Below, one piece after another: positions 3,001-56,066 of a stretch of 64,000 nt of DNA. A model generated the notes under the pieces. That model worked only from the letters and a program-made list of their open reading frames with translations. It did no database searches and was not told where the DNA came from. The translations under genes and the position numbers were made by a program. Within the stretch, counting starts at the first letter, position 1; each line of letters starts with the position of its first letter. Source of the stretch: Candidatus Zixiibacteriota bacterium (lineage in GTDB: Bacteria > RBG-13-66-14 > B26-G2 > WVWN01); NCBI GenBank assembly GCA_030613505.1, contig JAUWLW010000009.1, positions 1,110 through 65,109 on the forward strand, read 5' to 3'.

Positions 3001-4137
3001 GTGCCCAACAACTTCAACGGCAAGGCCGTGGTGCAGCTTTTCGACCGGCCTTGGTACTTCTACAGCGGCGACATGGACAGGGACATCTACCGGGACCGGT
3101 TGCTCGCTACGACGGATGTCGAGGTCTTGAACGGCCGCTTCGACGCGACGTTGGTCGTGCCGACGATGCCCGTCAATCCTATCCCGAGCTTCGACGCCGG
3201 GCCTCCCGTTGCCGCGGGAGAAGCGGCTCCGGCGGGGGCGGCGTCCGCGGCGGCCGATAACGCGGCCGCGGCCGCGGAGGGGGCCGGACCGCCGGCGCCG
3301 GCCGCGGCGTCGCCGTACCGCGTCCCGTCGCTCGCGCCCGTCGCCGAGGACGGCGTAGTTCACGTTAAAGCCGTGGCTTACGGGACCGGCTTCCGCCGGG
3401 TATACGTCTGCAACGAGGACGTAACGGTCAACGTGGCAGGGGAGGTTAGCTCCGGCGACAACGTCGGCCCGGATATCGACGTCTACTTGAACGATTATTC
3501 CTTCCGCAGCGGCGACCCCACCGACCCGACCCCCACGCTTCTGGTCGACGTGCGCGACGAGAGCGGCGTCCTCGTCGCGCGCAACCTCGAGGCCATAGAT
3601 AAGGATAAGGGCGAGAGAACCTTCGTGCCCTTCTCCGCCCGCATAACTAAACCCGACCCCAAATCGACGCCGACCGTTCTGGACCTCACTTATTATTACA
3701 AGGCCAAGGTGGGCGATTACCGCGGCGGCTCGGTGGAGAAAGAGATTTCGCTGGCAGACGGCGTGAGTACAATCGCCGTGACGGCGTACGACAGCTTGGG
3801 CAATAAGAGCCAGCGGAAGGTCCAATGCGTCGTGAGCGGGGCGTTGGGCATGGCGGAAGTGATGAATTGCCCGAACCCGTTCAAGGACGATACCTACTTC
3901 ACGTTCGTAGCCTCGAGCGACGTCGACAGCCTGGTCATTAAGATCTACACCGCCACCGGGCGCTTGATCCAGAAATTGGAAACCGGCGGCCTGCCGGCGG
4001 GCTACAACCAGATCCACTGGGACGGCCGCGACGGCGACGGCGACCGCATAGCCAACGGCGTTTACTTCTATAAAATCATCGCCCGGGCCGGCGGTGAGAA
4101 GATCGTCGCCCGGCAGAAGATGTTTAAACTGAGGTAG
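1..4137 (+). CDS. Peptidase C25 (gingipain-like) family cysteine protease, 5'-partial. It has an Ala/Pro-rich linker and a C-terminal FlgD-Ig/T9SS-CTD-like sorting domain.
   Basis: The reading frame is open from nt 1, so the gene starts upstream of the window. No signal peptide is visible. C25 catalytic dyad context is present: 'HYAGHGGPQVW' (His) and 'IIQCSCSTAYFD' (Cys). The N-terminus resembles a gingipain propeptide. A low-complexity linker 'AAGEAAPAGAASAAADNAAAAAEGAGPPAPAAASP' is present. The last ~90 aa ('CPNPFKDDTYFTF...ANGVYFYKIIARAGGEKIVARQKMFKLR') match the C-terminal domain shared with the proteases at 8642, 50503 and 52348. Confidence 0.7.
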   Translation, partial: ATGDVGEPELLMRRVHVAAPPEAHVSVEVERVSFDVRTGVDLYPRPRLKVEERHGEQTLSEEFAYDAVAYREGTYPAKFAELEGEDVMRGYRLISVAVYPYQYQPAAGTLRVVKSVVVRVSFRGGVRRPNARYPARPAEDGIFTRVVPAVVLNHEVASRWPFAGGIAPARDGDVWPTDFAGKAAVKVVVEEEALYRLSYAELKATGLPVDTLNPANLRFFAGPAKRLPRDFNYEPPGLTELPIYVAGQGDGRFDASDYVEFYGHGCDFFEHIEPGENGAQKFSKNRFTRYNFYWLVADAVPGKRMTAAAVAPTGGTKPAYFWDRLRLEEDNQDVAETENAILEEDEYWYWRIFNAPTGPSRIKSFTFKDPVNGAGAPKTYLQIMVREQEGLEGNGPHHTIVYLNYPDKNHIIFEEDNYKADVETYFHRRFPSRHLIDGQNRLYFEEVGDRAPIDFIMLDHFEFEYPRHFRAYQDYLHFSNPPGTNGKVLFEIPGFTTDDLVVYDVTRGRRLAAFEVKAAGNEYTLRFTDDIPSGQRWYVAASPSAARKPRDVYLDAGSKLRDVDENVDLVVVVYDGYYDNVMPLVNLRRAAGLNVLVARVTDVYDEYSWGLYDPGATRLLVKDVYRKAIYRPGGELPDHLFLVGDAYLDHRDNYGNFANRELWREFGRNQVPTYYINTSSSGRTSSDNYFVAMSASLAPDLAVGRFPAPFDDNIDAIVEKVVAYERHAANGPWNNRVILVADNDDKTESGGGRGDFTRDNENLEEEFTPLGFEVRKEYIEWLTRRFPVDRIEETGFDFMSRGERQYWVGRIMKPDFLKGFNGIIMHYAGHGGPQVWSHENLFLHHKDLPPVDDVDALENAPYLPVIIQCSCSTAYFDQWYGTENEPLDFGQCISEYILQVPRKGGVAALGSTRLGYEGAQHAFLQSFYGYVFPKKKARWSGVTVGEAHLVGKIKVGETIRDMFVLLGDPSMTLATPRPGLKLTPNKAKVKRGEKVKVAGTVPNNFNGKAVVQLFDRPWYFYSGDMDRDIYRDRLLATTDVEVLNGRFDATLVVPTMPVNPIPSFDAGPPVAAGEAAPAGAASAAADNAAAAAEGAGPPAPAAASPYRVPSLAPVAEDGVVHVKAVAYGTGFRRVYVCNEDVTVNVAGEVSSGDNVGPDIDVYLNDYSFRSGDPTDPTPTLLVDVRDESGVLVARNLEAIDKDKGERTFVPFSARITKPDPKSTPTVLDLTYYYKAKVGDYRGGSVEKEISLADGVSTIAVTAYDSLGNKSQRKVQCVVSGALGMAEVMNCPNPFKDDTYFTFVASSDVDSLVIKIYTATGRLIQKLETGGLPAGYNQIHWDGRDGDGDRIANGVYFYKIIARAGGEKIVARQKMFKLR

Positions 4138-5437: not shown

Positions 5438-6220
5438 ATGGGCGATAAATTGCTCGCGCTCGACGTGGGCAACACGTCTATCGCCGGCGGATACTTCGTC
5501 GGCGGTCGACTCGAGTTTCACGTTGACTTCTCAAGCGACGCGTCGCGGACCGCGGACGAATACGGGGCGCAGCTGCGGCACCTGGTGGAGCTCAACGGCG
5601 GCGCCGCGGCCGCCTTGCCGTCCGTAATGTGCTCGGTGGTGCCGCCGCTCACGTCGTGCCTGGCGGCGGCGCTCGAGAAATATTTCGGCGTAGCGCCGGT
5701 GGTAGTGGGCGACGACTACGACGCGTTGGGCATCGAGGTGCGCTATGAGAACGTGGCGGAGGTGGGCCCGGATCGCGTCGTCAACGCCCTGGCGACGCGC
5801 GAGTTGTACGGCGCGCCGGCGGTGGCGGTGGATTTCGGCACGGCCACTAATTTCGACGTCGTGGCCGCCGACGGCGCGTACGTCGGGGGCGTGATAGCGC
5901 CCGGCGTCGTCGTCTCGGCCAAGAGCCTTTTCGCGGAGGCGGCCCGCCTGGGCGCGGTGGGCCTTACGATGCCGCCGCGGGTGGTGGGGCGAAACACGGA
6001 CGAGGCTTTGCGCGCGGGCATCATCCTGGGCGCGGCGGGCGCCGCCGACGGGATAGTCGAAGCCATACGGGAGGAGAGGGGGGAGCGCGGCGCGTTGGTC
6101 GCGACCGGCGGCCTGGCGAACGTCGTAGCGCCGGTTATGAAGACGGCGCCGCGCGTCGACGCGGACCTCACGTTGAAAGGGCTCGCGCTGTCGTTCGAGC
6201 GGTTGGGCGGCGCGACGTAA
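5438..6220 (+). CDS. coaX: Type III pantothenate kinase.
   Basis: 'LLALDVGNTSI', 'GPDRVVNALA' and 'AVDFGTATNFDV' are CoaX/Bvg accessory factor family motifs. Length 260 aa. Confidence 0.8.
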   Translation: MGDKLLALDVGNTSIAGGYFVGGRLEFHVDFSSDASRTADEYGAQLRHLVELNGGAAAALPSVMCSVVPPLTSCLAAALEKYFGVAPVVVGDDYDALGIEVRYENVAEVGPDRVVNALATRELYGAPAVAVDFGTATNFDVVAADGAYVGGVIAPGVVVSAKSLFAEAARLGAVGLTMPPRVVGRNTDEALRAGIILGAAGAADGIVEAIREERGERGALVATGGLANVVAPVMKTAPRVDADLTLKGLALSFERLGGAT

Positions 6221-6230
6221 AACCACGACT

Positions 6231-7013
6231 ATGAGACGTTGCGGGATTTTGTGGCTTGCGGCGGCCGTTTTTATTTTCACGGCCGCGTGCCGCCGCGGCG
6301 AAGAGGGTGCCGAGAGCGCGGCGCCGGGAGAAGGGTACACGCCGCCGCCGGTGGAGTACGTCGTCGGAAAGATGGACGTGGACGACGACGCCGCGGAACC
6401 GTCGGTGCGTATGAACATAGCCGTCGACCCGTCGACGCCGGCCAAGGATATCGAGCGACTGTTGAACTACTTCGACAAGGAGCGGTACGACGAGTACGAT
6501 ATCGTTTGGGTTAACGTCTACTTCGACGTTGCCAAAGCGCGTTCGCCCGAGGCGGATACGCTGGCGCTGGTGGCGACGCTGCGCGTAAACCGCCCCGGGT
6601 TCCGTGAGCTCAAGCTCTCGGAAGATTTACTGGACCCGGAAGGAACGTTGGGCGGCCGACCCGAAGTCACTACTCAGACCGAGGAAACCCTTTACCTCGG
6701 CCGCCGCGGTCGGATGTTCGACTCCGGCAAGCAAGCGCAAACCCTCGTCGACATGATGGAAGATAAACCCGGCCACGCCCTCTACAGAGTCGTGTGGCAG
6801 AGCCCCGGTAATGCCCAATTGACGTACAGCGTTGAACAGGAGATGTTGGTGCGCGTCCGGACCGGCGTCTCGCGTGAGACGTGGGCCGAGATGTCGTACG
6901 AGGGCTTGGAACGCGCCGCGAGGGGCGCCGGCTTCGGCGGCAAGCGGCGCCACGGCGCCAACTACGTTTACGTTCGGGAAACGGCGGACGAGGCCGAGGG
7001 CGGAGGTGAGTGA
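6231..7013 (+). CDS. Hypothetical lipoprotein.
   Basis: Signal peptide with lipobox 'FIFTAAC'. I recognise no other motif. Confidence 0.4.
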   Translation: MRRCGILWLAAAVFIFTAACRRGEEGAESAAPGEGYTPPPVEYVVGKMDVDDDAAEPSVRMNIAVDPSTPAKDIERLLNYFDKERYDEYDIVWVNVYFDVAKARSPEADTLALVATLRVNRPGFRELKLSEDLLDPEGTLGGRPEVTTQTEETLYLGRRGRMFDSGKQAQTLVDMMEDKPGHALYRVVWQSPGNAQLTYSVEQEMLVRVRTGVSRETWAEMSYEGLERAARGAGFGGKRRHGANYVYVRETADEAEGGGE

Positions 7014-7022
7014 CGCCCTAGC

Positions 7023-8021
7023 TTGCTCGCGCGCGACGTACGCGTCGGCATCACGACTACCCTTCCTATAGAGGTCCTCTGGGCGGCGGGCTATAGGCCG
7101 GTGGACCTCAATAATTTATTCATAGGCCGCGGCGACGCCGAACGCGCGGTGCAAGAGGCCGAAAGCGTAGGTTTCCCGCGTAGCACCTGCGCTTGGATAA
7201 AGGGGATCTACGCCACCGTTAAGGAGGAGGGTTTCGGCCGCGTCGTTGTCGTGACCGGGGGCGACTGTTCCAACGCCGCCGCGCTGGGCGAGGTCTTGGC
7301 GGACGAGGGCGTCGACGTCGTCGCGTTCGCGTTTCCTTCACGGCCGGACCGGGCCGCGACAACCCTCGCCGTAGAGGCGCTCGCCGGCCGATTCGAAACG
7401 ACCGTAAGCGCCGCTGAAGGAGTTTTCGCGCGCCTCTCGCGAAGCCGGGCGCTCCTGGCGGAGGTGGACGAGCTGACGTGGCGCGAGGGCATCGTGTCCG
7501 GCCGCGAGAACTTCGATTGGCTGCTGAAGGCTTGCGATTTCGGCGTCGGGGTCGAAGAATTTGAAGAAGAAGCGACGCGGTTCTTGGCGGAAGTGCGCGG
7601 CCGGCGCGGGCAAACGAAGCGCGTCCGCCTGGGCGTAGCCGGCGTTCCCCCCATCAACGACGACCTCTTTGAGTTTCTGGAGAGTTTGGGGGCCGCGGTC
7701 GTATTCAACGAGCTGCCGCGGCAATTCGCGCTCTTGGCCGGCGGCGACGACCTGGCCGACGCGTACACTCGTTATACCTACCCTTACGGCGCCGGGACCC
7801 GCATAGCCGATATATTGGAAGAGGTAGAACGCCGCGGCGTGCAGGGCTTGGTGCATTACGTCCAATCCTTCTGTTACCGCGGGATCCAGGATATTCTCGT
7901 ACGCCGCGCCGTGCCGGTCCCGGTCTTGACGCTGGAGGGCGAGCGGCCCGGGCCGCTGTCGGCGCAGCAGCGTCTGCGGCTCGAAACGTTCGTCGAGATG
8001 TTGGCCGGGGGTACTCGTTAG
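7023..8021 (+). CDS. 2-hydroxyacyl-CoA dehydratase / benzoyl-CoA reductase subunit family protein (HgdB/BcrC-like).
   Basis: Pattern 'CAWIKGIY...VVVTGGDCSN' and overall alpha/beta layout resemble HGD-D family subunits. It is shorter (332 aa) than typical subunits and no activase gene is nearby. Assignment by recall only. Confidence 0.4.
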   Translation: MLARDVRVGITTTLPIEVLWAAGYRPVDLNNLFIGRGDAERAVQEAESVGFPRSTCAWIKGIYATVKEEGFGRVVVVTGGDCSNAAALGEVLADEGVDVVAFAFPSRPDRAATTLAVEALAGRFETTVSAAEGVFARLSRSRALLAEVDELTWREGIVSGRENFDWLLKACDFGVGVEEFEEEATRFLAEVRGRRGQTKRVRLGVAGVPPINDDLFEFLESLGAAVVFNELPRQFALLAGGDDLADAYTRYTYPYGAGTRIADILEEVERRGVQGLVHYVQSFCYRGIQDILVRRAVPVPVLTLEGERPGPLSAQQRLRLETFVEMLAGGTR

Positions 8022-40303: not shown

Positions 40304-41344
40304 TTGTTTTGCCTTTGCGCGGCCGCGGCGGCCGCGAACGGCCGGTCCCTCGAGGCCGTAAACTATTGGAACGGCGTCCTCGGCGCGTCGGGCGAATTCC
40401 GCACCGTCTTCGACAATACCGAGTATTCAACCGTCCGTTTGGAGAAGTTGGACGAACGGACGTATTTCTTTTCGGACCTGACGCTGTATGCCGATTTCCA
40501 CGTGGCCGAGGGCGTATTGGTGCAGGCGGGGGGAAAAGTCCGCTACGATTTCGGCGACGACGTCGCCGACGGCCCGGGCCCCCGCGCGTACCTCCGCTTG
40601 CGCGGCACTCTTGACACCGAGCACCACCACTGGACCTTCGGCCACTTCCGCGATTCGACGTCGCCGCTCACTTTCGAACAACGCGACTACGACGACGAGC
40701 TGGCCGGCATGCGGTACCGCCTTACGTGGGGGCCCAGCGACAGCCGGCTCTTCCTCGCGCGGACGTCGACAGTGGGCGAGGAGAGGTACGAGACGTTCGC
40801 CGGCGGCGGTCGCTTTTCGCTGCGGCCGTGGGAGAAAACCGTCCTGGCGGCCAACCTGGGCGGCATCCACCAGGGCGGCTTCGACGCCGGGAGGGGTTCG
40901 GCCCCGCTCGGCGGCCGTAAGCGTGAGGCGGGCGTGGGTTCGCTCGATTTCGAACAGGGGATAATATGGGGCCTTTTCGCGTCCGGCGAGGCCGCCCTCT
41001 CTATGGACCGGGGCGACAGGGAAGAGGGTTCGCTGCGGGACAACGCCTTTTGGGCCGGCGGCGGATGGCGGCGTGGCCCGTTCGAGGTGAGCGGCCGCTT
41101 CTACCGCGTGGGGTGGGCGTTCGCGACGCCGTGGGGCGTGAGGTTTCTGCGAAACGAGGAGGGGTCGATTATATTGAGCGACTTTTACGCGTGGACCGCG
41201 CGCGGCGCCGCCTCGTTCGACGTCTTCGAAACCGCCAGGCTTACGTTGGCGCTCGAGGGGGGCGTCAAATATAAAGAGGAGAACTTCGCCGAGCAGGATT
41301 ACAATTTCAACATCGAGTTAATCAAGTTCGAGGTTTACTTATAG
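40304..41344 (+). CDS. Hypothetical exported/outer-membrane-like protein.
   Basis: TTG start with a short hydrophobic N-terminus. Gly/aromatic-rich. Ends '...IELIKFEVYL'. No recognised domain. The start is uncertain. Confidence 0.35.
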   Translation: MFCLCAAAAAANGRSLEAVNYWNGVLGASGEFRTVFDNTEYSTVRLEKLDERTYFFSDLTLYADFHVAEGVLVQAGGKVRYDFGDDVADGPGPRAYLRLRGTLDTEHHHWTFGHFRDSTSPLTFEQRDYDDELAGMRYRLTWGPSDSRLFLARTSTVGEERYETFAGGGRFSLRPWEKTVLAANLGGIHQGGFDAGRGSAPLGGRKREAGVGSLDFEQGIIWGLFASGEAALSMDRGDREEGSLRDNAFWAGGGWRRGPFEVSGRFYRVGWAFATPWGVRFLRNEEGSIILSDFYAWTARGAASFDVFETARLTLALEGGVKYKEENFAEQDYNFNIELIKFEVYL

Positions 41345-41360
41345 AGGTCGTTTCTCCGAT

Positions 41361-41404
41361 AAAAACGCCGCCCGCCCGGGCGGCTTTATTCTTCTCTTGG
41401 CGGT
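41361..41404. terminator. Bidirectional hairpin terminator between the convergent genes.
   Basis: AAAAAC-GCCGCCCG-cc-CGGGCGGC-TTTATTCTTCTCTT. Confidence 0.55.
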
Positions 41405-41424
41405 TTCTTTAGGCCCGTGTGAAC

Positions 41425-42762
41425 TTAGGTTCGTCCGAGTATGTTAGCGACTACCGCGGCCAGGTCCGCGCGCGGTACCTCCACTTGTTCCCGTTTCGCC
41501 AGGTCCTTCAATTGAACGACGCCCTTTGCGACCTCGTCAGGGCCGACGACGACGACGAAAGGGATCCCTTTGGCATCCGCGTAGCCGAACTGCTTGGCGA
41601 GTTTGGCGGAGGGCTCGAGGTAAACCTCGCAAGTCGCGCCGGCCGCTCTTATCTCCGCGGCGACTTCCAATGCGTCTTGCAGGACGCTCTTGTCATATAC
41701 CGCGACGAGTACGTTCGCGGCGTCGCCGCCGGCGGTTTCGCGGTCCGCGAGGAGCGTTATGATGCGCTCCAGACCGAACGACGTTCCGGTCGCGGGGAGG
41801 TCCGGTCCTCCCAGCTGCGCGATTAGCTGGTCGTAGCGGCCTCCCCCCGCCACCGAGCCTACGCCCCCCTCGACGACGAACGCCTCGTAGATGGGGCCGG
41901 TGTAGTAGTCCAGGCCGCGGGCCATATGGAGGTCGAAGCTCACGACGTCGTCGGGGACGCCGAAGTGATGGACGTATTCGGCCAAATTATGCATATCGGC
42001 GACGCCCTCGCGGCCTTCGTCGTAGTCGCCGGCGAACGCCTGAGCCGCAGTTAGATAATAATTGAAGCGGCCGCTGTTCTTCGGGTCGAATAACACATTC
42101 ATAATTTCGTCGGCTGCGGGTTCCGGTACGTCGCTCGCCGCAAGCTCGGCCTCGACGCCGTCGCGGCCTACTTTGTCGAGTTTGTCCATAGCTCGGATAG
42201 CCGCGAATTTAAGCTCGGCCGGGACGCCGGCATAATCCATGAAGGCCGACAGTATTTTGCGGTGATTTACGCTTATGCGATAATTTTTAAAACCCAAAGC
42301 CGCGAGCGTTTCGTGCATGACGGCGACCATCTCGGCGTCGGCGAGTACGGACGCCGTCCCGACGCAGTCGACGTCGCATTGGACGAACTCGCGGAAGCGG
42401 CCTTTTTGCGGCCTCTCGGCGCGCCACACGGGCTGGATCTGGTAACGCTTGAACGGTTTGGGAAGGTCTTGGTTCGCGGCCATAACGCGCGCCAGCGGGA
42501 CGGTGAGGTCGTAGCGCAGGCCCAGGTCGGCCTCGCCGCGCTCGCCGGCGGCGCCGCGCTTCAGGATGCGGAAGATGAGTTGGTCCGCCTCGTCGCCGTA
42601 CTTGCCGGTCAGGACGTCGAGGCGCTCGAGCGCCGGCGTCTCCAGCGGCGCGTAGCCGAAGCTCTCGAAGACGCGCTTGACGGTCTCGATCACGCCGGCG
42701 CGGGTGCGGATCTGCGCCGGCAGGTAGTCGCGCGTTCCTTTGGGCGGTAGGGGTTTCATCAC
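41425..42762 (-). CDS. hisS: Histidine--tRNA ligase.
   Basis: 'KPLPPKGTRDYLPAQIRTRAGVIETVKRVFESFGYAPLETPALE' class II aaRS motif 1. HisRS-specific motifs. 445 aa. Confidence 0.9.
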   Translation of the reverse strand: MMKPLPPKGTRDYLPAQIRTRAGVIETVKRVFESFGYAPLETPALERLDVLTGKYGDEADQLIFRILKRGAAGERGEADLGLRYDLTVPLARVMAANQDLPKPFKRYQIQPVWRAERPQKGRFREFVQCDVDCVGTASVLADAEMVAVMHETLAALGFKNYRISVNHRKILSAFMDYAGVPAELKFAAIRAMDKLDKVGRDGVEAELAASDVPEPAADEIMNVLFDPKNSGRFNYYLTAAQAFAGDYDEGREGVADMHNLAEYVHHFGVPDDVVSFDLHMARGLDYYTGPIYEAFVVEGGVGSVAGGGRYDQLIAQLGGPDLPATGTSFGLERIITLLADRETAGGDAANVLVAVYDKSVLQDALEVAAEIRAAGATCEVYLEPSAKLAKQFGYADAKGIPFVVVVGPDEVAKGVVQLKDLAKREQVEVPRADLAAVVANILGRT

Positions 42763-42797
42763 CTGTAGTTGTGCGCGGTCCCGTGGAGCGGTCGGCG

Positions 42798-44330
42798 TTA
42801 TTCCAACTCCCCCGCGACCTTCTCGGCCGCGGCCAGGACCTCACCCGACTTCACGAGCTCGGCCACGCGGTTGATGTCGTATTGCGTCGGCCGGTCCTTC
42901 TCCATAAAGTCGACGTGCTGGCGGACCAGCTTGTGCACCGCCCCCGCGGCGGCGCCGCCCTTGAGCGGCCGCCGGTGGTCCATCGCCTGGCACGCCGCTA
43001 TAAGCTCAATCGCTATGATGTACCAGGCGTTGCGCAATATCTGCTTCGTCTTGATAGCGGTGTTCATCCCCATGGAGACGAAGTCCTCCTGGTCCGCGGC
43101 GGCGGGTATGGAGCCGGTGGCCGCGGGGTGGCATAGGACGCGGTTCTCGTTGACCAGCATGCCGGCGGTGTACTGCGTGAGCATCAGGCCGCTGAACATG
43201 CCGGCGCCGTGTATCAGGAACGCCGGGAGCCCCTCGCTCAGGTTGGGGTTCATCAGGCGGTTGAGGCGCCGCTCCGAGAGGACGCATACCGTAGTCGCCG
43301 CGGTGCCGACCAGCTCGAGGGCGAAGGCCAGCGGCGTCCCCTGGAAGTTGGCCCCGGTGACCACTTCGTCGTCGTCGGGGAAGAAGAGCGGGTTGTCGCC
43401 GGCGCCGTTGAATTCGATCTCGAACATTTGCCGCGCCCAGTCGAAGGCGTCCTTGGCCGAGCCGACTACCTGGGGCGTGGAGCGGAGGCTATACGCGTTC
43501 TGGACTTTCTTCTTGCCCATCTTGCCGGGGATGAGCATCTCGGAGCCGTCGACCAGGCGGCGGATGTTGCTCGCGCATTTGACGGCGCCCGGGTAGCCGC
43601 GGGCTTTGTGAAGGCGTTCGTCCAGGCAAAGCGTATTGAGGTTCAGGACCTCGAACGTCATGGCGGCGATGACTTCCTGCGTCTTGGCCCAACGGTAGGC
43701 GTCGTGGACCTCGAGGGCGCCCATGCCGGCGATGACGTTGGAGCCGTTGATGGTGGCGAGGCCGTCGCGGGCCTCGAAGACGATGGTGGGTACGCCGGCG
43801 GCATCCATGGCCTTTTTACCTTCCATTCGCTTGCCGCCGAAGAAAGCCTCGCCCTCGCCTATGAGCACGAGCGCCACCTGGCTCATGGGCGAGAGGTCGC
43901 CGGAGGCGCCCACCGAGCCGTACCGGAATACGACCGGCGTAACGCCCTTATTGAGCATGTCGACGAGGGTCTCTACCACTACCGGCCTGAGCCCCGAAAA
44001 GCCGACGCAGTGACAGTTGACGCGGGTGGCCATCGCGGCGCGGATGTCGTCGACGTCGCAGGGCTCACCGCAGCCCGCGGAGTGGGAGTACACGAGGTAG
44101 CGTTGGAATTCCTGCGTTTGCTCGGGCGTGAGGACTACTTCCGAAAACTCGCCGATGCCGGTCGTCACGCCGTACATGACCTCGCGCTTCTCCAATTTGT
44201 CGTCCAGCATCGCGCGGCATTTACGAATCCGTTCCCACGCGTCCTCGGTCACCTCGACCGGCTCGCCGCCGCGCGCGATTTTAACTAGACTCTCGATCGT
44301 AAGCGATTTACCGTCGAGTTTAGCCGTCAT
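42798..44330 (-). CDS. hutH: Histidine ammonia-lyase family (MIO-dependent ammonia-lyase/aminomutase).
   Basis: MIO-forming 'GSVGASGDLSPMSQVAL' (Ala-Ser-Gly). Overall HAL/PAL architecture. 510 aa. Substrate assignment tentative. No hutU/hutI in the window. Confidence 0.75.
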   Translation of the reverse strand: MTAKLDGKSLTIESLVKIARGGEPVEVTEDAWERIRKCRAMLDDKLEKREVMYGVTTGIGEFSEVVLTPEQTQEFQRYLVYSHSAGCGEPCDVDDIRAAMATRVNCHCVGFSGLRPVVVETLVDMLNKGVTPVVFRYGSVGASGDLSPMSQVALVLIGEGEAFFGGKRMEGKKAMDAAGVPTIVFEARDGLATINGSNVIAGMGALEVHDAYRWAKTQEVIAAMTFEVLNLNTLCLDERLHKARGYPGAVKCASNIRRLVDGSEMLIPGKMGKKKVQNAYSLRSTPQVVGSAKDAFDWARQMFEIEFNGAGDNPLFFPDDDEVVTGANFQGTPLAFALELVGTAATTVCVLSERRLNRLMNPNLSEGLPAFLIHGAGMFSGLMLTQYTAGMLVNENRVLCHPAATGSIPAAADQEDFVSMGMNTAIKTKQILRNAWYIIAIELIAACQAMDHRRPLKGGAAAGAVHKLVRQHVDFMEKDRPTQYDINRVAELVKSGEVLAAAEKVAGELE

Positions 44331-44726
44331 CTAAGGGCCTCCTGTAAAGCAGCCGTCGAGCCGGGCCGCCGGGGCCCGACGTAAAGGGCTCTCGGCGATT
44401 TTTCGTGGTAGATGCTACGGCTTCCGCCGCGGGGTTTATCGATATTTAACTTAAACGGCCAACATTGTGGCTTGGCGGTAAACTAATCGGCGGTGATTCT
44501 ATCACTTACGAGCCGGAGTCGCAATATATTATTAAATATCCGGGCGACTTTTTTACGCGTTTTAGAGCTCATAGTTAACCTTTTCAACATTATCGTATTT
44601 ATGTTAATATAAAGGGTGGTAACAGGGCGTCGGCGGCGAGGCCGGGAGGGCTTCGCGTAACTTGTCGTGTAGTAGTAATAGTAAGGAGATACCGTACCGG
44701 TTTTTAGCAAGCGGTTCGAGCGGCGG

Positions 44727-49421: not shown

Positions 49422-50330
49422 TTATGTAAGTTCGTATTTAACGAAGATGTTGCGGAAGATTTGACCGGCGAGGCGGGGATTTTCCTTCAGGCGACGGGTG
49501 GAGTACGCGTACCAGGCGGTCCCGAAGGGGACGTAGATGCGGAGCTTGTGGCCCGCTGCCACGATTGTATCGCGGAGTTTGGCGTCCACGCCCAGGAGCA
49601 TCTGGAATTCATATTGATCGCGCTCGAGGCCGTACTCGTAGACCGCGCGCAACCCCTCCCAGACCATCTTCTCGTCGTGGGTAGCGATGCCGACGTAGCA
49701 CCCGCCGTCCAGAAGGACGTCGAGCAGGAGGCTGAAGTTGGCGTTTACTACGGCTTTGTCCTTGTAGGCCAGTTCCCGCGGCTCGTTGTAGATACCCTTG
49801 CACAGGCGAAGGTTGGCCTTGGCCGCGGCGAGCCCCGCGCAATCGGCCAGGCTGCGACGGAGGTACGATTGGATAACGGTGCCGACGTTGTCGTACCTCT
49901 CGCGAAGGGCGTAATATACGTCGAGGGTATCCTGGGTGCAAGAAGAGTCTTCCATGTCGACGCGGACGAAGTTGCCGTAGCGCTTAACCTCGTCGCAAAT
50001 GGCGGCGACGTTTTCCCGGCAGAACGCCTTGTCTATTTTTAAGCCTAACATAGTCGGTTTGAGGGAGATATTCGAGTCGAGTTTTTCGGCGTCTATAGCC
50101 GCGAGGACTTTCTTGTAGGCCTCCACCGCGGCCAACGCTTCGTCGCGGTCGTCGATTTCCTCGCCAAGGATGTCTATCGTGGCGCATATTCCGCGATTGT
50201 TTAACGCTTTGACAACGCGGACGGCGTCTTCCAGTTTGTCGCCGGCGATGTAGCGGCCGGCGAAGCGCCGCACCAGCGGCCGTGGAACGAGCGGCAGCGT
50301 CGCGACGATGGCTTTGTTGAACAAGCTCAT
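49422..50330 (-). CDS. Proline dehydrogenase (monofunctional PRODH).
   Basis: TIM-barrel PRODH pattern 'ATIDILGEEI...LSIKPTALG'-like and 'RLCKGIYNEP'. 302 aa. Confidence 0.7.
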   Translation of the reverse strand: MSLFNKAIVATLPLVPRPLVRRFAGRYIAGDKLEDAVRVVKALNNRGICATIDILGEEIDDRDEALAAVEAYKKVLAAIDAEKLDSNISLKPTMLGLKIDKAFCRENVAAICDEVKRYGNFVRVDMEDSSCTQDTLDVYYALRERYDNVGTVIQSYLRRSLADCAGLAAAKANLRLCKGIYNEPRELAYKDKAVVNANFSLLLDVLLDGGCYVGIATHDEKMVWEGLRAVYEYGLERDQYEFQMLLGVDAKLRDTIVAAGHKLRIYVPFGTAWYAYSTRRLKENPRLAGQIFRNIFVKYELT

Positions 50331-50502: not shown

Positions 50503-52254
50503 TTAACGAGTGATTACCAATCGCCGGTTTAGCGTTCCGTTGGCCGTTCGGAGGCGGTAGACGTAAACGCCGGGCGCCAGCGGCCGGCCCGCCTCGTCGG
50601 CTACGTTCCAGGCGATCTCTTTGGCGCCGGCGGCGGCGTGGCCTTCGTAGAGGGTCCGTATTTTGCGGCCGGCGTAGTCGTAGACCTCGAGCGCGACGGC
50701 CCCGGGTTGGGCCAGCTCGAACTTGATGGTCGTGGCGTCTCGGGCCGGGTTAGGCCGGTTCTGATAAAGGGCCGCGCCTTTCGGCAGCGCCTTGCCCGAC
50801 GCCCGCCCCTTGACCGGGCCGAAGGTCGACGTTTCCCCCTTCAAGTCCACGCCCTCGAGCAGGTACTCGTAATCGCGGCCCGCTTCGACGCCCCGGTCGA
50901 CGTAGTTATATGGCGAGCGGCCGGCGACGAGGTTCTCGTTGAGCTTCGCGTAATCGACCGTCGCCGGTCCTTCCGCGGTCGGCCGGCGGTAGAGGTTGAA
51001 GCCCGCCACGTCGCGTTCGTTCGCGACTTCCCAATGAAGCGTTACGCCGCCGGCGGCGGCCTCGGCCCGGAACGACGTTACGTTTACGGGTAACTCCGAA
51101 AAGCCGAGCTTAAGGAGTTTGAGAAGCACCGGATATTGTTCGGCGCAGGTGATGGGGATTTGGTAGGCCGGCGGTTGTTGGGAGGTATCGATCTCGAACG
51201 TGAAGCCCCAGCACTTGTCGTGGCCTTTACCGTCGTATTCCCAATCGCACGCCGTCCCGCTCCCCAGGTAGCGCAACGTTTCCCAGAAATTGCCGTGCCG
51301 CCACCCCGATAAAGTTTCTATGAGATATAACGAGACGTTTTTGAAGTACGTATAATCGGGCTCGGGGGGATGGCCGTAATCGTGGTTCCAGGGATACATG
51401 CAATATCGGCCGGACGAGTGATAATTTAGGGCGTAATTAAACTGGTGTTCGTTGCTATTGACGAGGTCGCGGATAGCTTGGGTTTCCGGTTCCGAAAAGG
51501 CGTAGGGGCCGCAATAGGTAGAGGCGTTCGGGTTGTGACTGCACCCCGGTACTTTACCCCACTCGTAGTCGTAATTACGGTTGAGGTCGACGCCGTAGCT
51601 CCCGCCGCCGTTGTCTCGGCGGTTTTTTCGCCACCTGTTGTAAACCTTGAAGACGTGGTTGTGGCCGTCAGGGTTAAGCATGGGGATTATCCAGGTCTCG
51701 ACGTTATCGACTATCAGCTTGACGTCGGGATCGGTCGGGTATTTCTCGCATAATTTCTTGGCGAGGTAAAGCGGCACCTCGACCGTCATGATCTCGTTGG
51801 CGTGGTGGTTGCCGTCTATGAGGATATCCTTTTCGGCTGCCTCGTGCGTCGCGACGTTGTCTGATATCTTCAGCGCCCAGATTTCGCGTTTCTCCCACGT
51901 ATCGCCGACGTCGTAGAGCCTGCAGATATTCGGGTAGGTGCTGGCGAGCCCTTGTAATATGGAAACCATCTCGTCGTACTCGGTATACTCGGAGGGCGGC
52001 GCGTCGGCGGTATCGATTTCGTCCAGAACGTCGTAGGAGATACTTTTAAGGCCAAGGACGGCGAGGTCGTCGGCCGACGCGTATAGGTCAAAGTGACCGG
52101 CGGCGTCCGCCCCGGCGACGTCGAAATCGTAGCGTCGCAGGTCGGCCATAAGGCGAGCCGGGTCGGCGTACGCGCGCGTTAAGTAAACGGTATCCGCGGC
52201 GGCTCCCGCGGCCAACGCAGCGACCACGGTTACAAATAATACTACGCTTTTCAC
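50503..52254 (-). CDS. Secreted M14 zinc carboxypeptidase with a C-terminal FlgD-Ig/T9SS-CTD-like domain (paralog 1).
   Basis: Signal peptide. 'GNHHANEIMT' HxxE zinc site. 'MLNPDGHNHV'. The C-terminal '...YQNRPNPARDATTIKFELAQPGAVALEVYDYAGRKIRTLY...GVYVYRLRTANG' domain is present. Confidence 0.8.
   Translation of the reverse strand: MKSVVLFVTVVAALAAGAAADTVYLTRAYADPARLMADLRRYDFDVAGADAAGHFDLYASADDLAVLGLKSISYDVLDEIDTADAPPSEYTEYDEMVSILQGLASTYPNICRLYDVGDTWEKREIWALKISDNVATHEAAEKDILIDGNHHANEIMTVEVPLYLAKKLCEKYPTDPDVKLIVDNVETWIIPMLNPDGHNHVFKVYNRWRKNRRDNGGGSYGVDLNRNYDYEWGKVPGCSHNPNASTYCGPYAFSEPETQAIRDLVNSNEHQFNYALNYHSSGRYCMYPWNHDYGHPPEPDYTYFKNVSLYLIETLSGWRHGNFWETLRYLGSGTACDWEYDGKGHDKCWGFTFEIDTSQQPPAYQIPITCAEQYPVLLKLLKLGFSELPVNVTSFRAEAAAGGVTLHWEVANERDVAGFNLYRRPTAEGPATVDYAKLNENLVAGRSPYNYVDRGVEAGRDYEYLLEGVDLKGETSTFGPVKGRASGKALPKGAALYQNRPNPARDATTIKFELAQPGAVALEVYDYAGRKIRTLYEGHAAAGAKEIAWNVADEAGRPLAPGVYVYRLRTANGTLNRRLVITR
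50556..51204. repeat. ~650-bp segment ~97% identical to 52401..53049 (3' third of the tandem M14 genes).
   Basis: Direct comparison of the two stretches shows only scattered single-nucleotide differences at a constant offset of 1845 nt. Additional short identical blocks occur near 51780-51900 and 53620-53740. Confidence 0.8.
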
Positions 52255-52280
52255 GCCGTCACCTCCTCGGGGTAACCGTT

Positions 52281-52317
52281 AAAAAAGCCCGGTTCGGCGC
52301 GAGCGCCGCCGGGCTTT
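52281..52317 (-). terminator. Rho-independent terminator of M14 paralog 2.
   Basis: On the minus strand: GCCCGGCGGCGCTCGCGCCGAACCGGGC followed by TTTTTT. Confidence 0.65.
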
Positions 52318-52347
52318 CGTCATTATTATCTGTTAGGTCGTCTCAAG

Positions 52348-54096
52348 TTAACGGGTTACGACCAAGCGCCGACTGAGCGTTTCGGCGCTCGTCCGCAGCC
52401 GGTAGACGTAAACGCCGGGCGCCAGCGGCCGGCCCGCCTCGTCGGCTACGTTCCAGGCGACCTCTGTGGCGCCGGCGTCGGCGTGGCCTTCAAAAAGCGG
52501 CCGTATTTTGCGGCCGGCGTAGTCGTAGACCTCGAGCGCGACGGCCCCGGGTTGGGCCAGCTCGAACTTGATGGTCGTGGCGTCTCGAGCCGGGTTAGGC
52601 CGGTTCTGATAAAGGGCCGCGCCTTTCGGCAGCGCCTTGCCCGACGCCCGTCCCTTGACCGGGCCGAAGGTCGACGTGCCCCCCTTCAAGTCCACGCCCT
52701 CGAGCAGGTATTCGTAGTCGCGGCCCGCCTCGGCGCCGCGGTCGACGTAGTTATACGGCGAGCGGCCGGCGATGAGGTTTTTGTTGAGCTTCGCGTAATC
52801 GACCGGCGCCGGCCCTTCCGCGGTCGGCCGGCGGTAGAGGTTGAAGCCCGCCACGTCGCGTTCGTTGGCGACTTCCCAGTGAAGCGCTACGCCGCCGGCG
52901 GCGGCCTCGGCCCGGAACGACGTTACGTTTACGGGTAACTCCGAAAAGCCGAGCTTAAGGAGTTTGAGGAGCACCGGATATTGTTCGGCGCAGGTGATGG
53001 GGATTTGGTAGGCCGGCGGTTGTTGGGAGGTATCGATCTCGAACGTGAAACCCCAATCTTTGGGGTGGCCTTTACCGTCGTATTCCCAGTCTACGGCGTT
53101 GCCGGAGGCCAAGTAGCGAAGGATTTCCCAGTCGTTGCCGTGCCGCCAGCCTGGCAAGGTCTCGAGCAGGTACGTCGCGACGTTCTTGTAATACGTGTAA
53201 TGGGGCTCCGGCGGGTGGCCGTAGGTATAAGCCCACGGGTAGAGCATGGCCCGGCCGGAGGAGTGGTAGTTTAACGTATACGCGAATTGGTGGTTAACGT
53301 CGTTGATGAGGTCCCGGATCGCCTGGTTCTCCGGTTCGGAAAAAGGGGAGGGGCCGCAGTAAGTCCTATCATTGGGGTTATGGCTCGCGCCGGATTCGCC
53401 CCAGTGATAGTCGTAGTTGCGGTTGAGGTCGACGCCGTAGATGCCGCCGCCGTTGTCGCGGCGGTTCTTACGCCACCTGTTATCCTCCGTGAAAACCCAG
53501 TTGTGGCCGTCCGGGTTGAGCATGGGGATTATCCATGTCTCGACGTTATCGACTATCAGCTTCACGCCGGGGTCGGTCGCGTATTTCTCGCACAAGTTCT
53601 TGGCGAGGTAAAGCGGCACCTCGACCGTCATGATCTCGTTGGCGTGGTGGCAACCGTTTATAAGGATGTCTTTCTCCGCCGTCTCGTGCGTCGCGACGTT
53701 GTCTGATATCTTCAGCGCCCAGATTTCACGCTTCTCCCAGGTGTCGCCGACGTCGTAAAGTTTACAAATATTGGGGTAGGTATTCGCGAACCCTTGCAAT
53801 ATCGGTACCATCTCATGGTACTCAGTGTACTCCGGAGGAGGTGCGTCGGAGGTATCGATTTCGTCCAGAACGTCGTAGGAGATACCTTTAAGGCCAAGGA
53901 CGGCGAGGTCGTCGGCCGACGCGTATAGGTCGAAGTGGTCGCCGGGTACGGCGCCGTCTACGTCGAAGTCGTACTCCGCCAGATCGGTCATAAGGCGGGA
54001 CGGGTCCGCGTAGGCGCGCGTCCAATAAAGCGTGTCCGCGGACGCGCCGGCGGCCAGGGCGGTTCCTAAGATTGTGACAACTACTATAGCTCTCAT
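52348..54096 (-). CDS. Secreted M14 zinc carboxypeptidase with a C-terminal FlgD-Ig/T9SS-CTD-like domain (paralog 2).
   Basis: Same motifs as paralog 1 ('NGCHHANEIMT', 'MLNPDGHNWV'). ~75% aa identity over the catalytic domain. Near-identical C-terminal third. Confidence 0.8.
   Translation of the reverse strand: MRAIVVVTILGTALAAGASADTLYWTRAYADPSRLMTDLAEYDFDVDGAVPGDHFDLYASADDLAVLGLKGISYDVLDEIDTSDAPPPEYTEYHEMVPILQGFANTYPNICKLYDVGDTWEKREIWALKISDNVATHETAEKDILINGCHHANEIMTVEVPLYLAKNLCEKYATDPGVKLIVDNVETWIIPMLNPDGHNWVFTEDNRWRKNRRDNGGGIYGVDLNRNYDYHWGESGASHNPNDRTYCGPSPFSEPENQAIRDLINDVNHQFAYTLNYHSSGRAMLYPWAYTYGHPPEPHYTYYKNVATYLLETLPGWRHGNDWEILRYLASGNAVDWEYDGKGHPKDWGFTFEIDTSQQPPAYQIPITCAEQYPVLLKLLKLGFSELPVNVTSFRAEAAAGGVALHWEVANERDVAGFNLYRRPTAEGPAPVDYAKLNKNLIAGRSPYNYVDRGAEAGRDYEYLLEGVDLKGGTSTFGPVKGRASGKALPKGAALYQNRPNPARDATTIKFELAQPGAVALEVYDYAGRKIRPLFEGHADAGATEVAWNVADEAGRPLAPGVYVYRLRTSAETLSRRLVVTR
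52401..53049. repeat. Second copy of the ~650-bp near-identical segment (see 50556..51204).
   Basis: As above. Confidence 0.8.
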
Positions 54097-54359
54097 CTGA
54101 GCTCCTCGTTCAGGTTTACAGGGCGGGCCTTTATACGTTTACTAAATAACGCCATCGTGGCGCAACGTATCGCTTTACCTATAGCGTTACCCCAAGCTTA
54201 TTAATAAATAATCCTCATTGTCAACAATTAATATATTAGGCGCTCGGAAGCCCTAAACCTTTATTATTCAATAAGATACGTGTGTTAAGCAAGTTTTTTT
54301 CCACATACTATTAACATAGTCGTTATTTGGCGGAAGCGCCTTATTTCTTTGGGGTTGCG

Positions 54360-55964
54360 CTAATTATTCGTTAATGATGAAACCTTGTCAGGACGTAATA
54401 TCGTATCCTTGGCACACCTTTCGTCGTCGCGGTTCGGGTGGTCCAAATTGAAGTGAAGGCCGCGGCTTTCGGGGCGGGCTTGCGCGGAATGTACGATTAA
54501 TTGGGCCACCGTTACTATGTTATGGAGCTCGACCAGGTCGTGGTTCAGGTTGGCGGTGGCGATAAGCTTATCCACGTTGCGACGGATGACCGCCAGCCGT
54601 TCCGCCGCCATCTCGAGACGGCGGTCACTCCGCACGATGCCGACGAAGTCCCTCATCGTTCGCCGCACCAGGTACCAGTCGTGAGAGACCGCTACCGGCT
54701 CGTGGTCGTTGACGCGCTTGCCGTTCCACGCCACGGCCGCTTCCGCCTCCGGAGCGAGGCCTATTTCTTCCGCCGCGGCATCGGCGGCCCGTTTGGCGAA
54801 GACGACCGCCTCCAGGAGAGAGTTCGAGGCCAGGCGGTTGGCGCCGTGAAGGCCGGTGCAGGCGACTTCTCCCACGGCGTAGAGCCCCGGCAATTCCGTA
54901 CGGCCGGAGAGGTCCGTCAGTACGCCGCCGCAGCAATAATGGGCCGAAGGGGCTACCGGCGCGGGTTCCACCGCCAGGTCGATGCCGTATTCGAGGCATT
55001 TGGAATAAATATACGGAAATCTTTTCTCCAATTTCTCCTTGCCCATATCCGTGACGTCGAGAAAGACGTGGTCCGTCCCGGCCTTCTTCGTCTCCTGGTC
55101 GATAGCGCGAGCCACGACGTCGCGCGGTCCCAGGTCCGCATCCTGATGATAATTTACCATGAACCGTTCGCCGTTTTTATTGAGTAAAACGCCCCCCTCG
55201 CCGCGAAGCGATTCCGAGAGAAGGAATGACCGTTCGGGAAGCGTTTTGGCGCCCGGGCGGAAGAGGCAGGTGGGGTGGAACTGGAAGAACTCCATATTGG
55301 CTACGGCGACGCCGGCGCGCCAGGCCGCGGCGATGCCGTCGCCGGTGCTCACGTCCGGGTTCGAGGTGATGAGGTAGACTTTACCGGCGCCGCCGGTCGC
55401 GAGGACCGTCGCTCGCGCGGCGAACGACATTACGTTGCCGTCGGCGCTCAGGACGTACGCCCCCCGGCACCGGCGGCCTTCGCCGTCCCCCCTCACGACT
55501 AAGTCGAGCGCGAGGTGGTTTTCGAAAATGTCGACGTTGGCCCGTCGACTCAGCGTGTCTATCAGCGCATCTTCTATCGCTTTACCGGTCAAGTCCGCGG
55601 CGTGCAGGATGCGCCGGCGCGAGTGCCCGCCCTCCATCCCCAGGTCGTAGCCGCCGTCCTGTTCTTTGGTGAACTCGACGCCCAGTTGGGCGAGTTCCAC
55701 CACCCGCCGGGGCCCTTCGCGCACTACCGTTTCGACCACGTCTTCGTGGCACAGGCCCGCGCCGGCTCGGATGGTGTCCTGGGCGTGGAGATTTACGTCG
55801 TCGTCGGGCGACGTGACGGCGGCGATGCCGCCCTGGGCGAGTGCGGTGGAGCTGTCCGTAAGGCCGCGTTTGGTGACCAGGCCCACGCGGCCGCGGTCGC
55901 CGAATTCCAACGCCGTATATAGGCCCGCCAGCCCCGAGCCGATTACGAGAAGGTCGAAATCCAT
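54360..55964 (-). CDS. nadB: L-aspartate oxidase.
   Basis: 'MDFDLLVIGSGLAGLYTALEF' FAD-binding. 'RPESRGLHFNLDHP' fumarate reductase/succinate dehydrogenase flavoprotein family C-terminus. ATG at 55964. Confidence 0.85.
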   Translation of the reverse strand: MDFDLLVIGSGLAGLYTALEFGDRGRVGLVTKRGLTDSSTALAQGGIAAVTSPDDDVNLHAQDTIRAGAGLCHEDVVETVVREGPRRVVELAQLGVEFTKEQDGGYDLGMEGGHSRRRILHAADLTGKAIEDALIDTLSRRANVDIFENHLALDLVVRGDGEGRRCRGAYVLSADGNVMSFAARATVLATGGAGKVYLITSNPDVSTGDGIAAAWRAGVAVANMEFFQFHPTCLFRPGAKTLPERSFLLSESLRGEGGVLLNKNGERFMVNYHQDADLGPRDVVARAIDQETKKAGTDHVFLDVTDMGKEKLEKRFPYIYSKCLEYGIDLAVEPAPVAPSAHYCCGGVLTDLSGRTELPGLYAVGEVACTGLHGANRLASNSLLEAVVFAKRAADAAAEEIGLAPEAEAAVAWNGKRVNDHEPVAVSHDWYLVRRTMRDFVGIVRSDRRLEMAAERLAVIRRNVDKLIATANLNHDLVELHNIVTVAQLIVHSAQARPESRGLHFNLDHPNRDDERCAKDTILRPDKVSSLTNN

Positions 55965-56066
55965 AATCCCGTAATTATAACATTCGTTATCATAAAACGC
56001 AAAAATAATCAAAAAGGGCGGCCGCGAGGCCGCCCTAGGGAATGCCGGTTTCGCAGCGATTAAACG

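Follow-up and report, generated by a model that had tools for sequence, protein, structure and literature searches.

Long-lasting concerted evolution, in which old duplicates are kept alike by recurrent gene conversion, is described as rare in prokaryotes; the catalog of Wang & Chen (2018; PMC6053082) comprises tuf (tufA/tufB) and 25 other genes, mostly of core complexes and pathways, for which conversion was proposed to maintain gene balance. Among eukaryotes, interlocus gene conversion is reported to limit the divergence of the tandem paralogs TLR1/TLR6 of mammals (PMC2077338) and to give rise to mosaic divergence of the tandem HMA4 paralogues of Arabidopsis halleri (PMC3749932; bioRxiv 10.1101/2025.10.29.685298). 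Here, we describe a bacterial locus with comparable properties in a 64,000-nucleotide (nt) stretch of DNA (hereafter, the window) from a Candidatus Zixiibacteriota bacterium (assembly GCA_030613505.1, contig JAUWLW010000009.1, positions 1,110 to 65,109). It consists of two genes predicted to code for secreted M14-family carboxypeptidases, which follow each other head to tail on the minus strand and are termed here B (the upstream, B-type paralog) and A (the downstream, A-type paralog). The history that we hold to be highly probable for this pair is one in which an old duplication preceded repeated rounds of interlocus gene conversion, i.e., partial concerted evolution.

The locus resembles tufA/tufB and the other cataloged genes in that old duplicates are kept alike by recurrent conversion, and it shares with them the same diagnosis, namely, paralogs that are closer to each other than to their orthologs, conserved synteny, and similarity that extends to synonymous sites. 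The cataloged genes belong to core complexes or pathways, with no peptidase named in the accessible part of that text, whereas the genes studied here are tandem, their products are predicted to be secreted, and conversion is partial, around a divergent core. With TLR1/TLR6 and HMA4, the locus shares a tandem of paralogs under interlocus conversion; however, those systems are eukaryotic and involve meiotic or mitotic recombination, whereas the present one is bacterial and the protected part corresponds to the predicted specificity pocket of an enzyme. The phenomenon is already known, and what the locus adds is not a new mechanism but a new bacterial case that is resolved unusually well.

At the protein level, all of the zinc-binding and catalytic residues correspond to those of carboxypeptidase T (CPT) of Thermoactinomyces vulgaris (PDB 1OBR, 6F6Q; H69/E72/H204, R129, N146, R147, Y255, and E277 in CPT), and an N-terminal pro-segment is shared with the pancreatic procarboxypeptidases A and B. 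The paralogs differ from CPT and the procarboxypeptidases by the addition of two C-terminal β-sandwich domains, including a type IX secretion system (T9SS)-type sorting domain, and their pocket residues differ from those of carboxypeptidase A (CPA; Ile255), carboxypeptidase B (CPB; Asp255), and CPT (Asp260 and Thr262).

Mosaic identity within and between genomes

The overall nucleotide identity of A and B (83.7%) is unevenly distributed along the genes (Table 1), and this unevenness is not due to chance, since none of 2000 permutations reached the maximum chi-square of 86.8 found for a breakpoint at codon 349 (largest permuted value, 32.2) and none of 5000 reached the longest identical run of 87 nt. 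The number of synonymous differences per synonymous site (pS) is 0.76 in codons 200-345 versus 0.11 in codons 345-530 of the same gene pair (Fisher p = 1e-23), which rules out protein constraint as the cause of the mosaic. The original prediction, made from the letters of the window, had described tandem M14 genes of 582/583 amino acids (aa), ~75% identical in the catalytic half and ~97% identical over the last third, with shorter identical islands elsewhere. The pairwise alignment that it called for confirms this mosaic: both open reading frames are present, with a catalytic-domain profile well above its cutoff in each (see below), codons 1-345 are 77.4% identical, and shorter stretches of high identity do occur at codons 50-85 (92%) and 150-180 (93%). 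The 3' block is likewise real (50556..51204 versus 52401..53049), but its identity, at 622 of 649 bases or 95.8%, is lower than proposed; the 27 differing sites correspond to ~0.12 synonymous substitutions per synonymous site (dS). Moreover, this block is just one flank of a central divergent island.

The same profile is found in related contigs, which we number L001, L002, and so forth. Among the tandem loci, both copies extend far enough for this comparison in the window, L002, L088, and L004, whereas L091, whose upstream copy is cut, was usable for the 3' block only, which is homogenized there too. In all four independent assemblies, the paralogs are ~90% identical except for one island (codons ~229-350) at ~65%; within genomes, identity drops to 57-71% over codons ~240-330, reaches 87-100% in the part that begins at codon 360, and is high over much of the stretch between codons 60 and 210. 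Two-breakpoint likelihood fits placed the island at codons 230-337 in both the window and L002, 229-348 in L088, and 223-352 in L004, with a mismatch of 0.34-0.36 inside and 0.09-0.12 outside.

Comparisons between genomes revealed opposite relationships for the island and its flanks. Over codons 225-345, identity across genomes is 73-95% within a type versus 62-69% between types. Over codons 360-470, by contrast, it is 93-97% within genomes versus 70-75% between the window, L088, and L004, and over codons 50-224 it is 87-91% within genomes; the flanks overall are 70-79% identical between distant genomes. Bootstrapped neighbor-joining trees conflict in the same manner: codons 225-345 recovered a B-type clade (92%), an A-type clade (100%), and no within-genome pair (0%), whereas codons 360-470 and codons 50-224 each recovered the L088 and L004 pairs at 100% and the type clades at 0%, with the six sequences from the window, L002, and L091 united in one clade (99.7%) in the C-terminal tree. 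Quartets of the two paralogs from two genomes give a finer picture. Between the window and L088, the informative sites in codons 201-350 group by type over genome at 43 to 9, as against ~6 to 213 elsewhere; codons 51-200 contribute 46 genome sites and no type site, and the 3' block contributes ~150 genome sites versus 3 type sites. The window/L004 and L088/L004 quartets behave as does that of the window and L088. The first ~50 codons group by type in the close comparison with L002 (29 type sites, 0 genome sites) and by genome in the deeper ones. When only synonymous third positions are considered, the flanks retain 14-24 genome sites versus 0-1 type sites (14 and 22 versus 0 for the window and L088), while inside the island the window and L002 show 32 type sites and no genome site. 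The divergence of the flanks between genomes follows that of the neighboring genes nadB and proline dehydrogenase (ProDH), which are 75-87% identical.

Each island type forms a clade of its own across genomes, and the genes always occur in the order nadB, B, A, ProDH; on this basis, the duplication is judged to be older than the divergence of the compared lineages, each of which has homogenized the flanks since. The recent duplication entertained in the original prediction is rejected by this monophyly across genomes whose nadB genes are 75-87% identical. Its alternative suggestion, that gene conversion homogenizes the C-terminal domains while part of the catalytic domain is kept different, is upheld by the conflicting trees of the regions. 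Conversion is not confined to the last third, however: codons ~51-228 also evolve in concert, and only codons ~229-350 escape in all of the genomes compared. As for the idea that conversion is ongoing, it is recurrent over evolutionary time, but activity now is demonstrated neither by the 27 differences among the 649 bases of the block nor by the homogenization events in L001, which lie at positions of possible bulge collapse.

Domain architecture and the content of the island

Both proteins display the same domain order, namely, a putative signal peptide, a pro-segment, a Peptidase_M14 catalytic domain, a β-sandwich, and a FlgD-Ig/T9SS type A C-terminal sorting domain. The catalytic domain was recognized by the Pfam profile PF00246 (E = 8e-72 for B and 7e-71 for A; 239.6 and 242.6 bits versus a cutoff of 21.6) over 284 of its 286 positions. 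The sorting domain was recognized by TIGR04183 (34.5 bits for A and 31.1 for B; cutoff, 23), the corresponding Pfam profile PF18962 (Por_Secre_tail) scoring 23.4 and 21.7 bits, below its cutoff of 27, and FlgD_ig scoring 29.6 and 25.9 bits against a cutoff of 27. The N terminus, as read from the sequence, is hydrophobic and ends in AGASA/DT or AGAAA/DT. The nearest solved structure for A is that of CPT (E = 1.8e-51), with a catalytic domain that is 30-33% identical. Alignment to CPT and CPA maps the zinc ligands to H151, E154, and H279 of A (CPA H69, E72, and H196) and the further catalytic residues to R212, N225, R226, Y329, and E354 (CPA Arg127, Asn144, Arg145, Tyr248, and Glu270), all of which are intact in both paralogs and in all 32 relatives. 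Thus classified by sequence, A and B are predicted to be CPT-like zinc enzymes of the MEROPS M14A type.

An AlphaFold2 model of A, computed from a 27-sequence family alignment (mean predicted local distance difference test score [pLDDT] of 71; below 50 at residues 195-255), consists of four parts, namely, an N-terminal β-α-β segment, the catalytic domain, and two C-terminal β-sandwiches. Its best fold matches are CPT and the zymogen forms of carboxypeptidases A and B, the latter aligning over ~400 columns, and for this reason the proteins look like secreted zymogens. Each gene further contains an internal direct repeat whose two units are 423 nt apart and 66-73% identical (Table 1); it encodes "...AAGG..HWEVANE" in the middle β-sandwich and "...AAGA..AWNVADE" in the sorting domain. 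This repeat suggests that the two C-terminal domains are themselves old duplicates.

The island holds the zinc ligand H279, the mobile loop of Tyr329, and the positions of the S1' pocket (N290, G331, T334, and C336 in A). At the equivalents of CPA positions 207, 250, 253, and 255, the A-type pocket has N, G, T, and C in nine proteins, and the B-type pocket has A, A, N, and V (L in one) in 19 close relatives, with the B-type residues recurring in three more distant proteins. The equivalents of CPA 202 and 203 are C and M/I in the A-type and M/L and L in the B-type. Comparison along the full length of the protein revealed 13 sites at which the two types have non-overlapping sets of residues; all lie in residues 234-336 and they include four of the five classical S1' positions. 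Position 255 of CPA is the classical determinant of specificity, being Ile in CPA and Asp in CPB. Nonsynonymous differences per nonsynonymous site (pN) in the island amount to 0.17 versus a pS of 0.76, which points to purifying selection on each island type. A different substrate preference of A and B is plausible as a reading of these residues rather than a result.

The second M14 gene of a more distant locus, L089, has Asp at the CPA-255 position within a CPB-like pocket (N/G/T/S/D) and would represent a third pocket type. Hence, three pocket versions seem to circulate at the locus: A/A/N/V, N/G/T/C, and N/G/T/D with the CPB-like Asp. Two further peculiarities of the A-type were observed. 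It has specific cysteines at 238, 285, and 336, and the G+C content of third codon positions in its island is 0.64-0.76 versus 0.75-0.93 in the converted flanks in all lineages. The B-type island has no such drop, and GC-biased conversion was dropped as an explanation, since the low values are seen in one type and not the other.

Alternative explanations and proposed mechanism

A near-identical contig, L001 (NODE_47 of ENA ERZ25748748; coverage, 9.4), is 99.36% identical to the window over 21.7 kb. Inside the two genes there are 10 differences between them, at 52461-52500, 52969, and 50743, all of which are non-reciprocal, such that the copies in L001 have been made identical to each other. 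Each difference is placed between identical runs of at least 55 nt (87, 81, 80, 62, or 61 nt), and assemblers of the SPAdes type, which use de Bruijn graphs, remove bulges where repeats share runs of length k (k = 55). Because of these flanking runs, the L001 differences are not counted as observed conversion, and the comparison was rejected as proof of ongoing conversion, all 10 differences being where k = 55 bulge removal would act. An exact look-up of protein B returned no match, because the cataloged contig carries the homogenized variant. Short-read assemblies can thus erase differences between paralogs.

Given that the source is a short-read metagenome contig and that L001, with a coverage of 9.4, is homogenized exactly at bulge-collapse positions, one could suppose that strain variants of one gene were stitched into a tandem or that cross-talk between repeats made the near-identical block. 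Yet the tandem, the mosaic, the island borders, and the hairpin-bearing spacer recur in the window/L001, L002, L088, and L004 (and the 3' block and spacer in L091), which were assembled from different samples and sources; the spacer, like the 5' ends (67% identical), is unique sequence; swapping of variants between copies cannot alter per-site identity; and bulge collapse erases isolated differences but cannot raise ~74% identity to ~95%. The original prediction had named a contig join at the block as a possible source of the pattern; the window has no N or other ambiguous base and hence no scaffolding gap at the block, a gap-free join being compatible with the sequence alone. The mosaic as a whole is not an artefact, its fine detail being less secure, and we give an artefactual origin very little credence. 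Equally hard to sustain is a recent or lineage-independent duplication followed by fast divergence of the catalytic segment, with flanks that are alike since the copies are young. The high identity of the flanks and the faint synonymous type signal of the island in the deepest comparisons are in keeping with it, but the island is saturated (pS of 0.76-1.0) against 0.11 in the flanks of the same gene pair, its types are monophyletic across genomes and always occupy the same upstream or downstream position, its synonymous sites group 32 to 0 by type between the window and L002, and independent duplications would need to arrive at the same 13 diagnostic residues each time. Such a history is therefore most improbable. 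Selection at the nucleotide level on the C-terminal block, through an overlapping RNA or antisense element and without conversion, could be read into the antisense open reading frames of 151 aa in both blocks, though these are expected by chance in high-GC DNA; it is refuted, and its probability is negligible, in that constraint would conserve the block within and between genomes alike, whereas it is 93-97% identical within genomes and 70-75% between them, and the 5' flank behaves in the same way.

A different matter is why the island persists. On the one hand, conversion may be real and the island may survive only through a mechanical block to recombination, the paralogs being functionally redundant: a mismatch of ~35% is far above the tolerance of homologous recombination, the island borders coincide with invariant protein motifs that provide identical DNA anchors, and several lineages live with a single copy of either type. 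This is possible but rather unlikely in our estimate, as both types have persisted and have kept their catalytic residues, the island has a low pN for its pS, the pocket residues are strictly conserved and type specific across many genomes, and the island first had to diverge while its flanks were being converted, which is easier with selection. On the other hand, the island may be a specificity cassette kept apart by selection for two preferences for C-terminal residues, while conversion keeps the parts for secretion, anchoring, and scaffold identical; to this proposal, we assign even chances.

Several points weigh against conversion after an old duplication and against the cassette. Every sequence stems from metagenome assembly; the homogenizations in L001 match bulge removal by the assembler, and near-100% stretches elsewhere are possibly inflated likewise; and the hybrid single copies described below may reflect collapse during assembly and not true deletions. 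Saturation leaves the island with a weak synonymous type signal in the deepest pairs (11:4:4, 9:6:5, and 3:6:4), and for such pairs an old duplication is supported by the full set of sites and by the conserved gene order. The AlphaFold2 model is too poor at residues 195-255 for inspection of the pocket or of disulfides among the A-type cysteines and was used for layout and fold matching. Finally, CPT in which the CPB pocket was recreated kept its specificity, indicating that pocket residues alone do not set it (PMC6937156), which weakens the functional meaning of the pocket differences. The suggestion in the original prediction that the arrangement maintains different substrate specificities is plausible in view of the type-specific residues at S1' positions, subject to this precedent from CPT.

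We propose the following course of events for conversion after an old duplication. A gene for a secreted CPT-like zinc enzyme would have been duplicated in tandem in ancient times, and homologous recombination between the direct repeats would repeatedly have copied one gene onto the other, such that concerted evolution within each genome affects codons ~51-228 and ~351-583. The island of ~120 codons (~229-350) would have escaped conversion in all lineages examined and kept two conserved versions. The invariant motifs that flank it, DLNRNYDY (5') and WGFTFEIDTSQQPPAYQIP (3'), may offer near-identical DNA at which tracts start or end, the ~35% divergence within would block heteroduplex formation, and selection for two substrate preferences would probably purge rare tracts that cross the island. 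Unequal crossovers by the same recombination could explain the single-copy hybrid genes at the locus in relatives. The tandem arrangement, the mosaic identity, the conflict between trees, the low synonymous divergence of the flanks, the type-specific pocket residues, and the variation in copy number are direct observations; we infer RecA-type conversion as the process, and likewise selection on the island and different substrate specificities.

Gene neighborhood and copy-number variation

Genes B and A are separated by a spacer of 93 nt. The hairpin noted between them as a terminator in the original prediction (52287..52314) is real, and in our delimitation it is slightly longer (Table 1). On the minus strand it reads GAAAGCCCGGCGGCGC-UCGC-GCGCCGAACCGGGCUUUUUU, and the spacer folds with -33.7 kcal/mol (z = -2.9). 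The spacers of L002, L088, L004, and L091 have a hairpin at the equivalent place with a different stem sequence. The GTG start of A is preceded, downstream of the hairpin, by a GAGGAGG ribosome-binding site. A promoter scan found weak consensus matches only and no clear promoter for A; the promoter for the pair probably lies in the 263-nt AT-rich intergenic region 5' of B, where the scan, too, gave weak matches only.

Table 1. Coordinates of the carboxypeptidase locus in the window (percentages are nucleotide identities)
Feature	Positions	Strand	Description	Basis
Gene B (B-type, upstream paralog)	52348..54096	-	582 aa, ATG start	Open reading frame
Gene A (A-type, downstream paralog)	50503..52254	-	583 aa, GTG start	Open reading frame
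Codons 1-50 (A numbering)			66.7%, A versus B	
5' partly homogenized region of A, codons 51-228	51571..52104	-	Pro-segment and first half of catalytic domain; 86.9% to B 53413-53946	
5' partly homogenized region of B, codons 51-228	53413..53946	-	86.9% to A; groups by genome	
Divergence island of A, codons 229-350	51205..51570	-	66.9% to island of B	
Divergence island of B, codons 229-349	53050..53412	-	66.9% to island of A	
3' homogenized block of A, codons 351-583	50506..51204	-	End of catalytic domain, β-sandwich, sorting domain; 93.8% to B 52351-53049; 95.8% over codons 351-565	
3' homogenized block of B, codons 350-582	52351..53049	-	93.8% to block of A	
Internal direct repeat of A	50594-50637 / 51017-51060			
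Internal direct repeat of B	52439-52482 / 52862-52905			
Terminator-like hairpin in spacer	~52281..52318	-	GC-rich, then T6	Sequence, scan, fold
Intergenic region 5' of B	54097-54359		GC ~41% versus ~60% around	
nadB-like (L-aspartate oxidase-like flavoprotein), upstream synteny anchor	54360..56012	-		Open reading frame; Pfam FAD_binding_2 and Succ_DH_flav_C on same gene in L001
ProDH, downstream synteny anchor	49422..50330	-		Open reading frame; Pfam Pro_dh

The close homologues carry the label Zixibacteria, and in Zixibacteria contigs the order nadB, M14 gene(s), ProDH, lactate permease is kept: nadB is upstream in every related locus that reaches far enough, and the position of ProDH is kept in L002, L006, L024, L027, L087, L088, and L091. 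The comparison of copy number that the original prediction had called for uncovered tandem, single, hybrid, decayed, and ProDH-separated loci. Tandem pairs, always with the B-type upstream and the A-type downstream, are present in the window, L001, L002, L088, L004 (where the contig ends within the downstream copy), and L091, and single copies are present in L006/L024, L087, L092, and L027. The single copy of L087 begins with ~45 nt that are similar to the upstream gene of L088, to which it is related, and has an island of the downstream type. L092 (GCA_030608805.1, JAUWDM010000013.1), whose nadB is 97.6% identical to that of the window, has a single gene (1980-3731) between nadB and ProDH that is a mosaic of the window genes, being B-like at nt 1-215, A-like at nt 247-1050, and mostly B-like at nt 1130-1730; it could be a copy-number polymorphism produced by unequal crossover or an assembly collapse. 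L027 (Ga0307380_10000166, 6096-7268) contains a decayed single B-type gene at the syntenic locus, with a frame disrupted upstream and two in-frame deletions, of which one removes the Tyr-loop segment and the other removes ~150 aa, joining two internal repeats that are also visible in gene A of the window (Table 1). All three loci are of the kind that unequal crossover and conversion between direct repeats would be expected to yield, with collapse during the assembly of short contigs as a further possible source.

In a more distant lineage, the two copies are separated by ProDH (L089, 3190-4926 and 6001-7743, and also L090 and L026). These pairs are 50-82% identical per 30-codon bin, mostly 50-70%, and no C-terminal block of high identity was seen in such bins. 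A further syntenic locus, L010 (5941-7014 of CP070633.1, a 2.3-Mb chromosome), has a nadB that is 77% identical and an M14 open reading frame that, at just 358 aa, is devoid of the C-terminal domains; it is labeled Candidatus Coatesbacteria, unlike the Zixibacteria labels of the other relatives. Elsewhere in the window, positions 40500-44500, which cover genes for a histidyl-tRNA synthetase, an aromatic ammonia-lyase, and their neighbors, contain more than 100 of the 140 differences from L001, the remaining ~17 kb being nearly identical; recombination or variation between strains may account for this segment.

The locus adds tandem secreted hydrolases to the instances of prokaryotic concerted evolution, which are reported to concern mostly core complexes and pathways (PMC6053082). 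It also allows conversion and its limits to be read across several lineages, in the form of two converted flanks and a protected island whose borders recur from genome to genome, together with the by-products to be expected, namely, single-copy hybrids and a copy in decay. Whole-gene trees of such families would wrongly suggest lineage-specific duplications. If the pocket differences alter substrate preference, the paralogs would be a matched pair of enzymes with differences almost entirely confined to the specificity segment and would be useful for studies of M14 specificity. If the island is indeed a specificity cassette, the Zixibacteria would maintain a limited repertoire of interchangeable carboxypeptidase pockets on one shared chassis that evolves in concert, providing a natural case of modular enzyme evolution with a measurable balance of conversion and selection.

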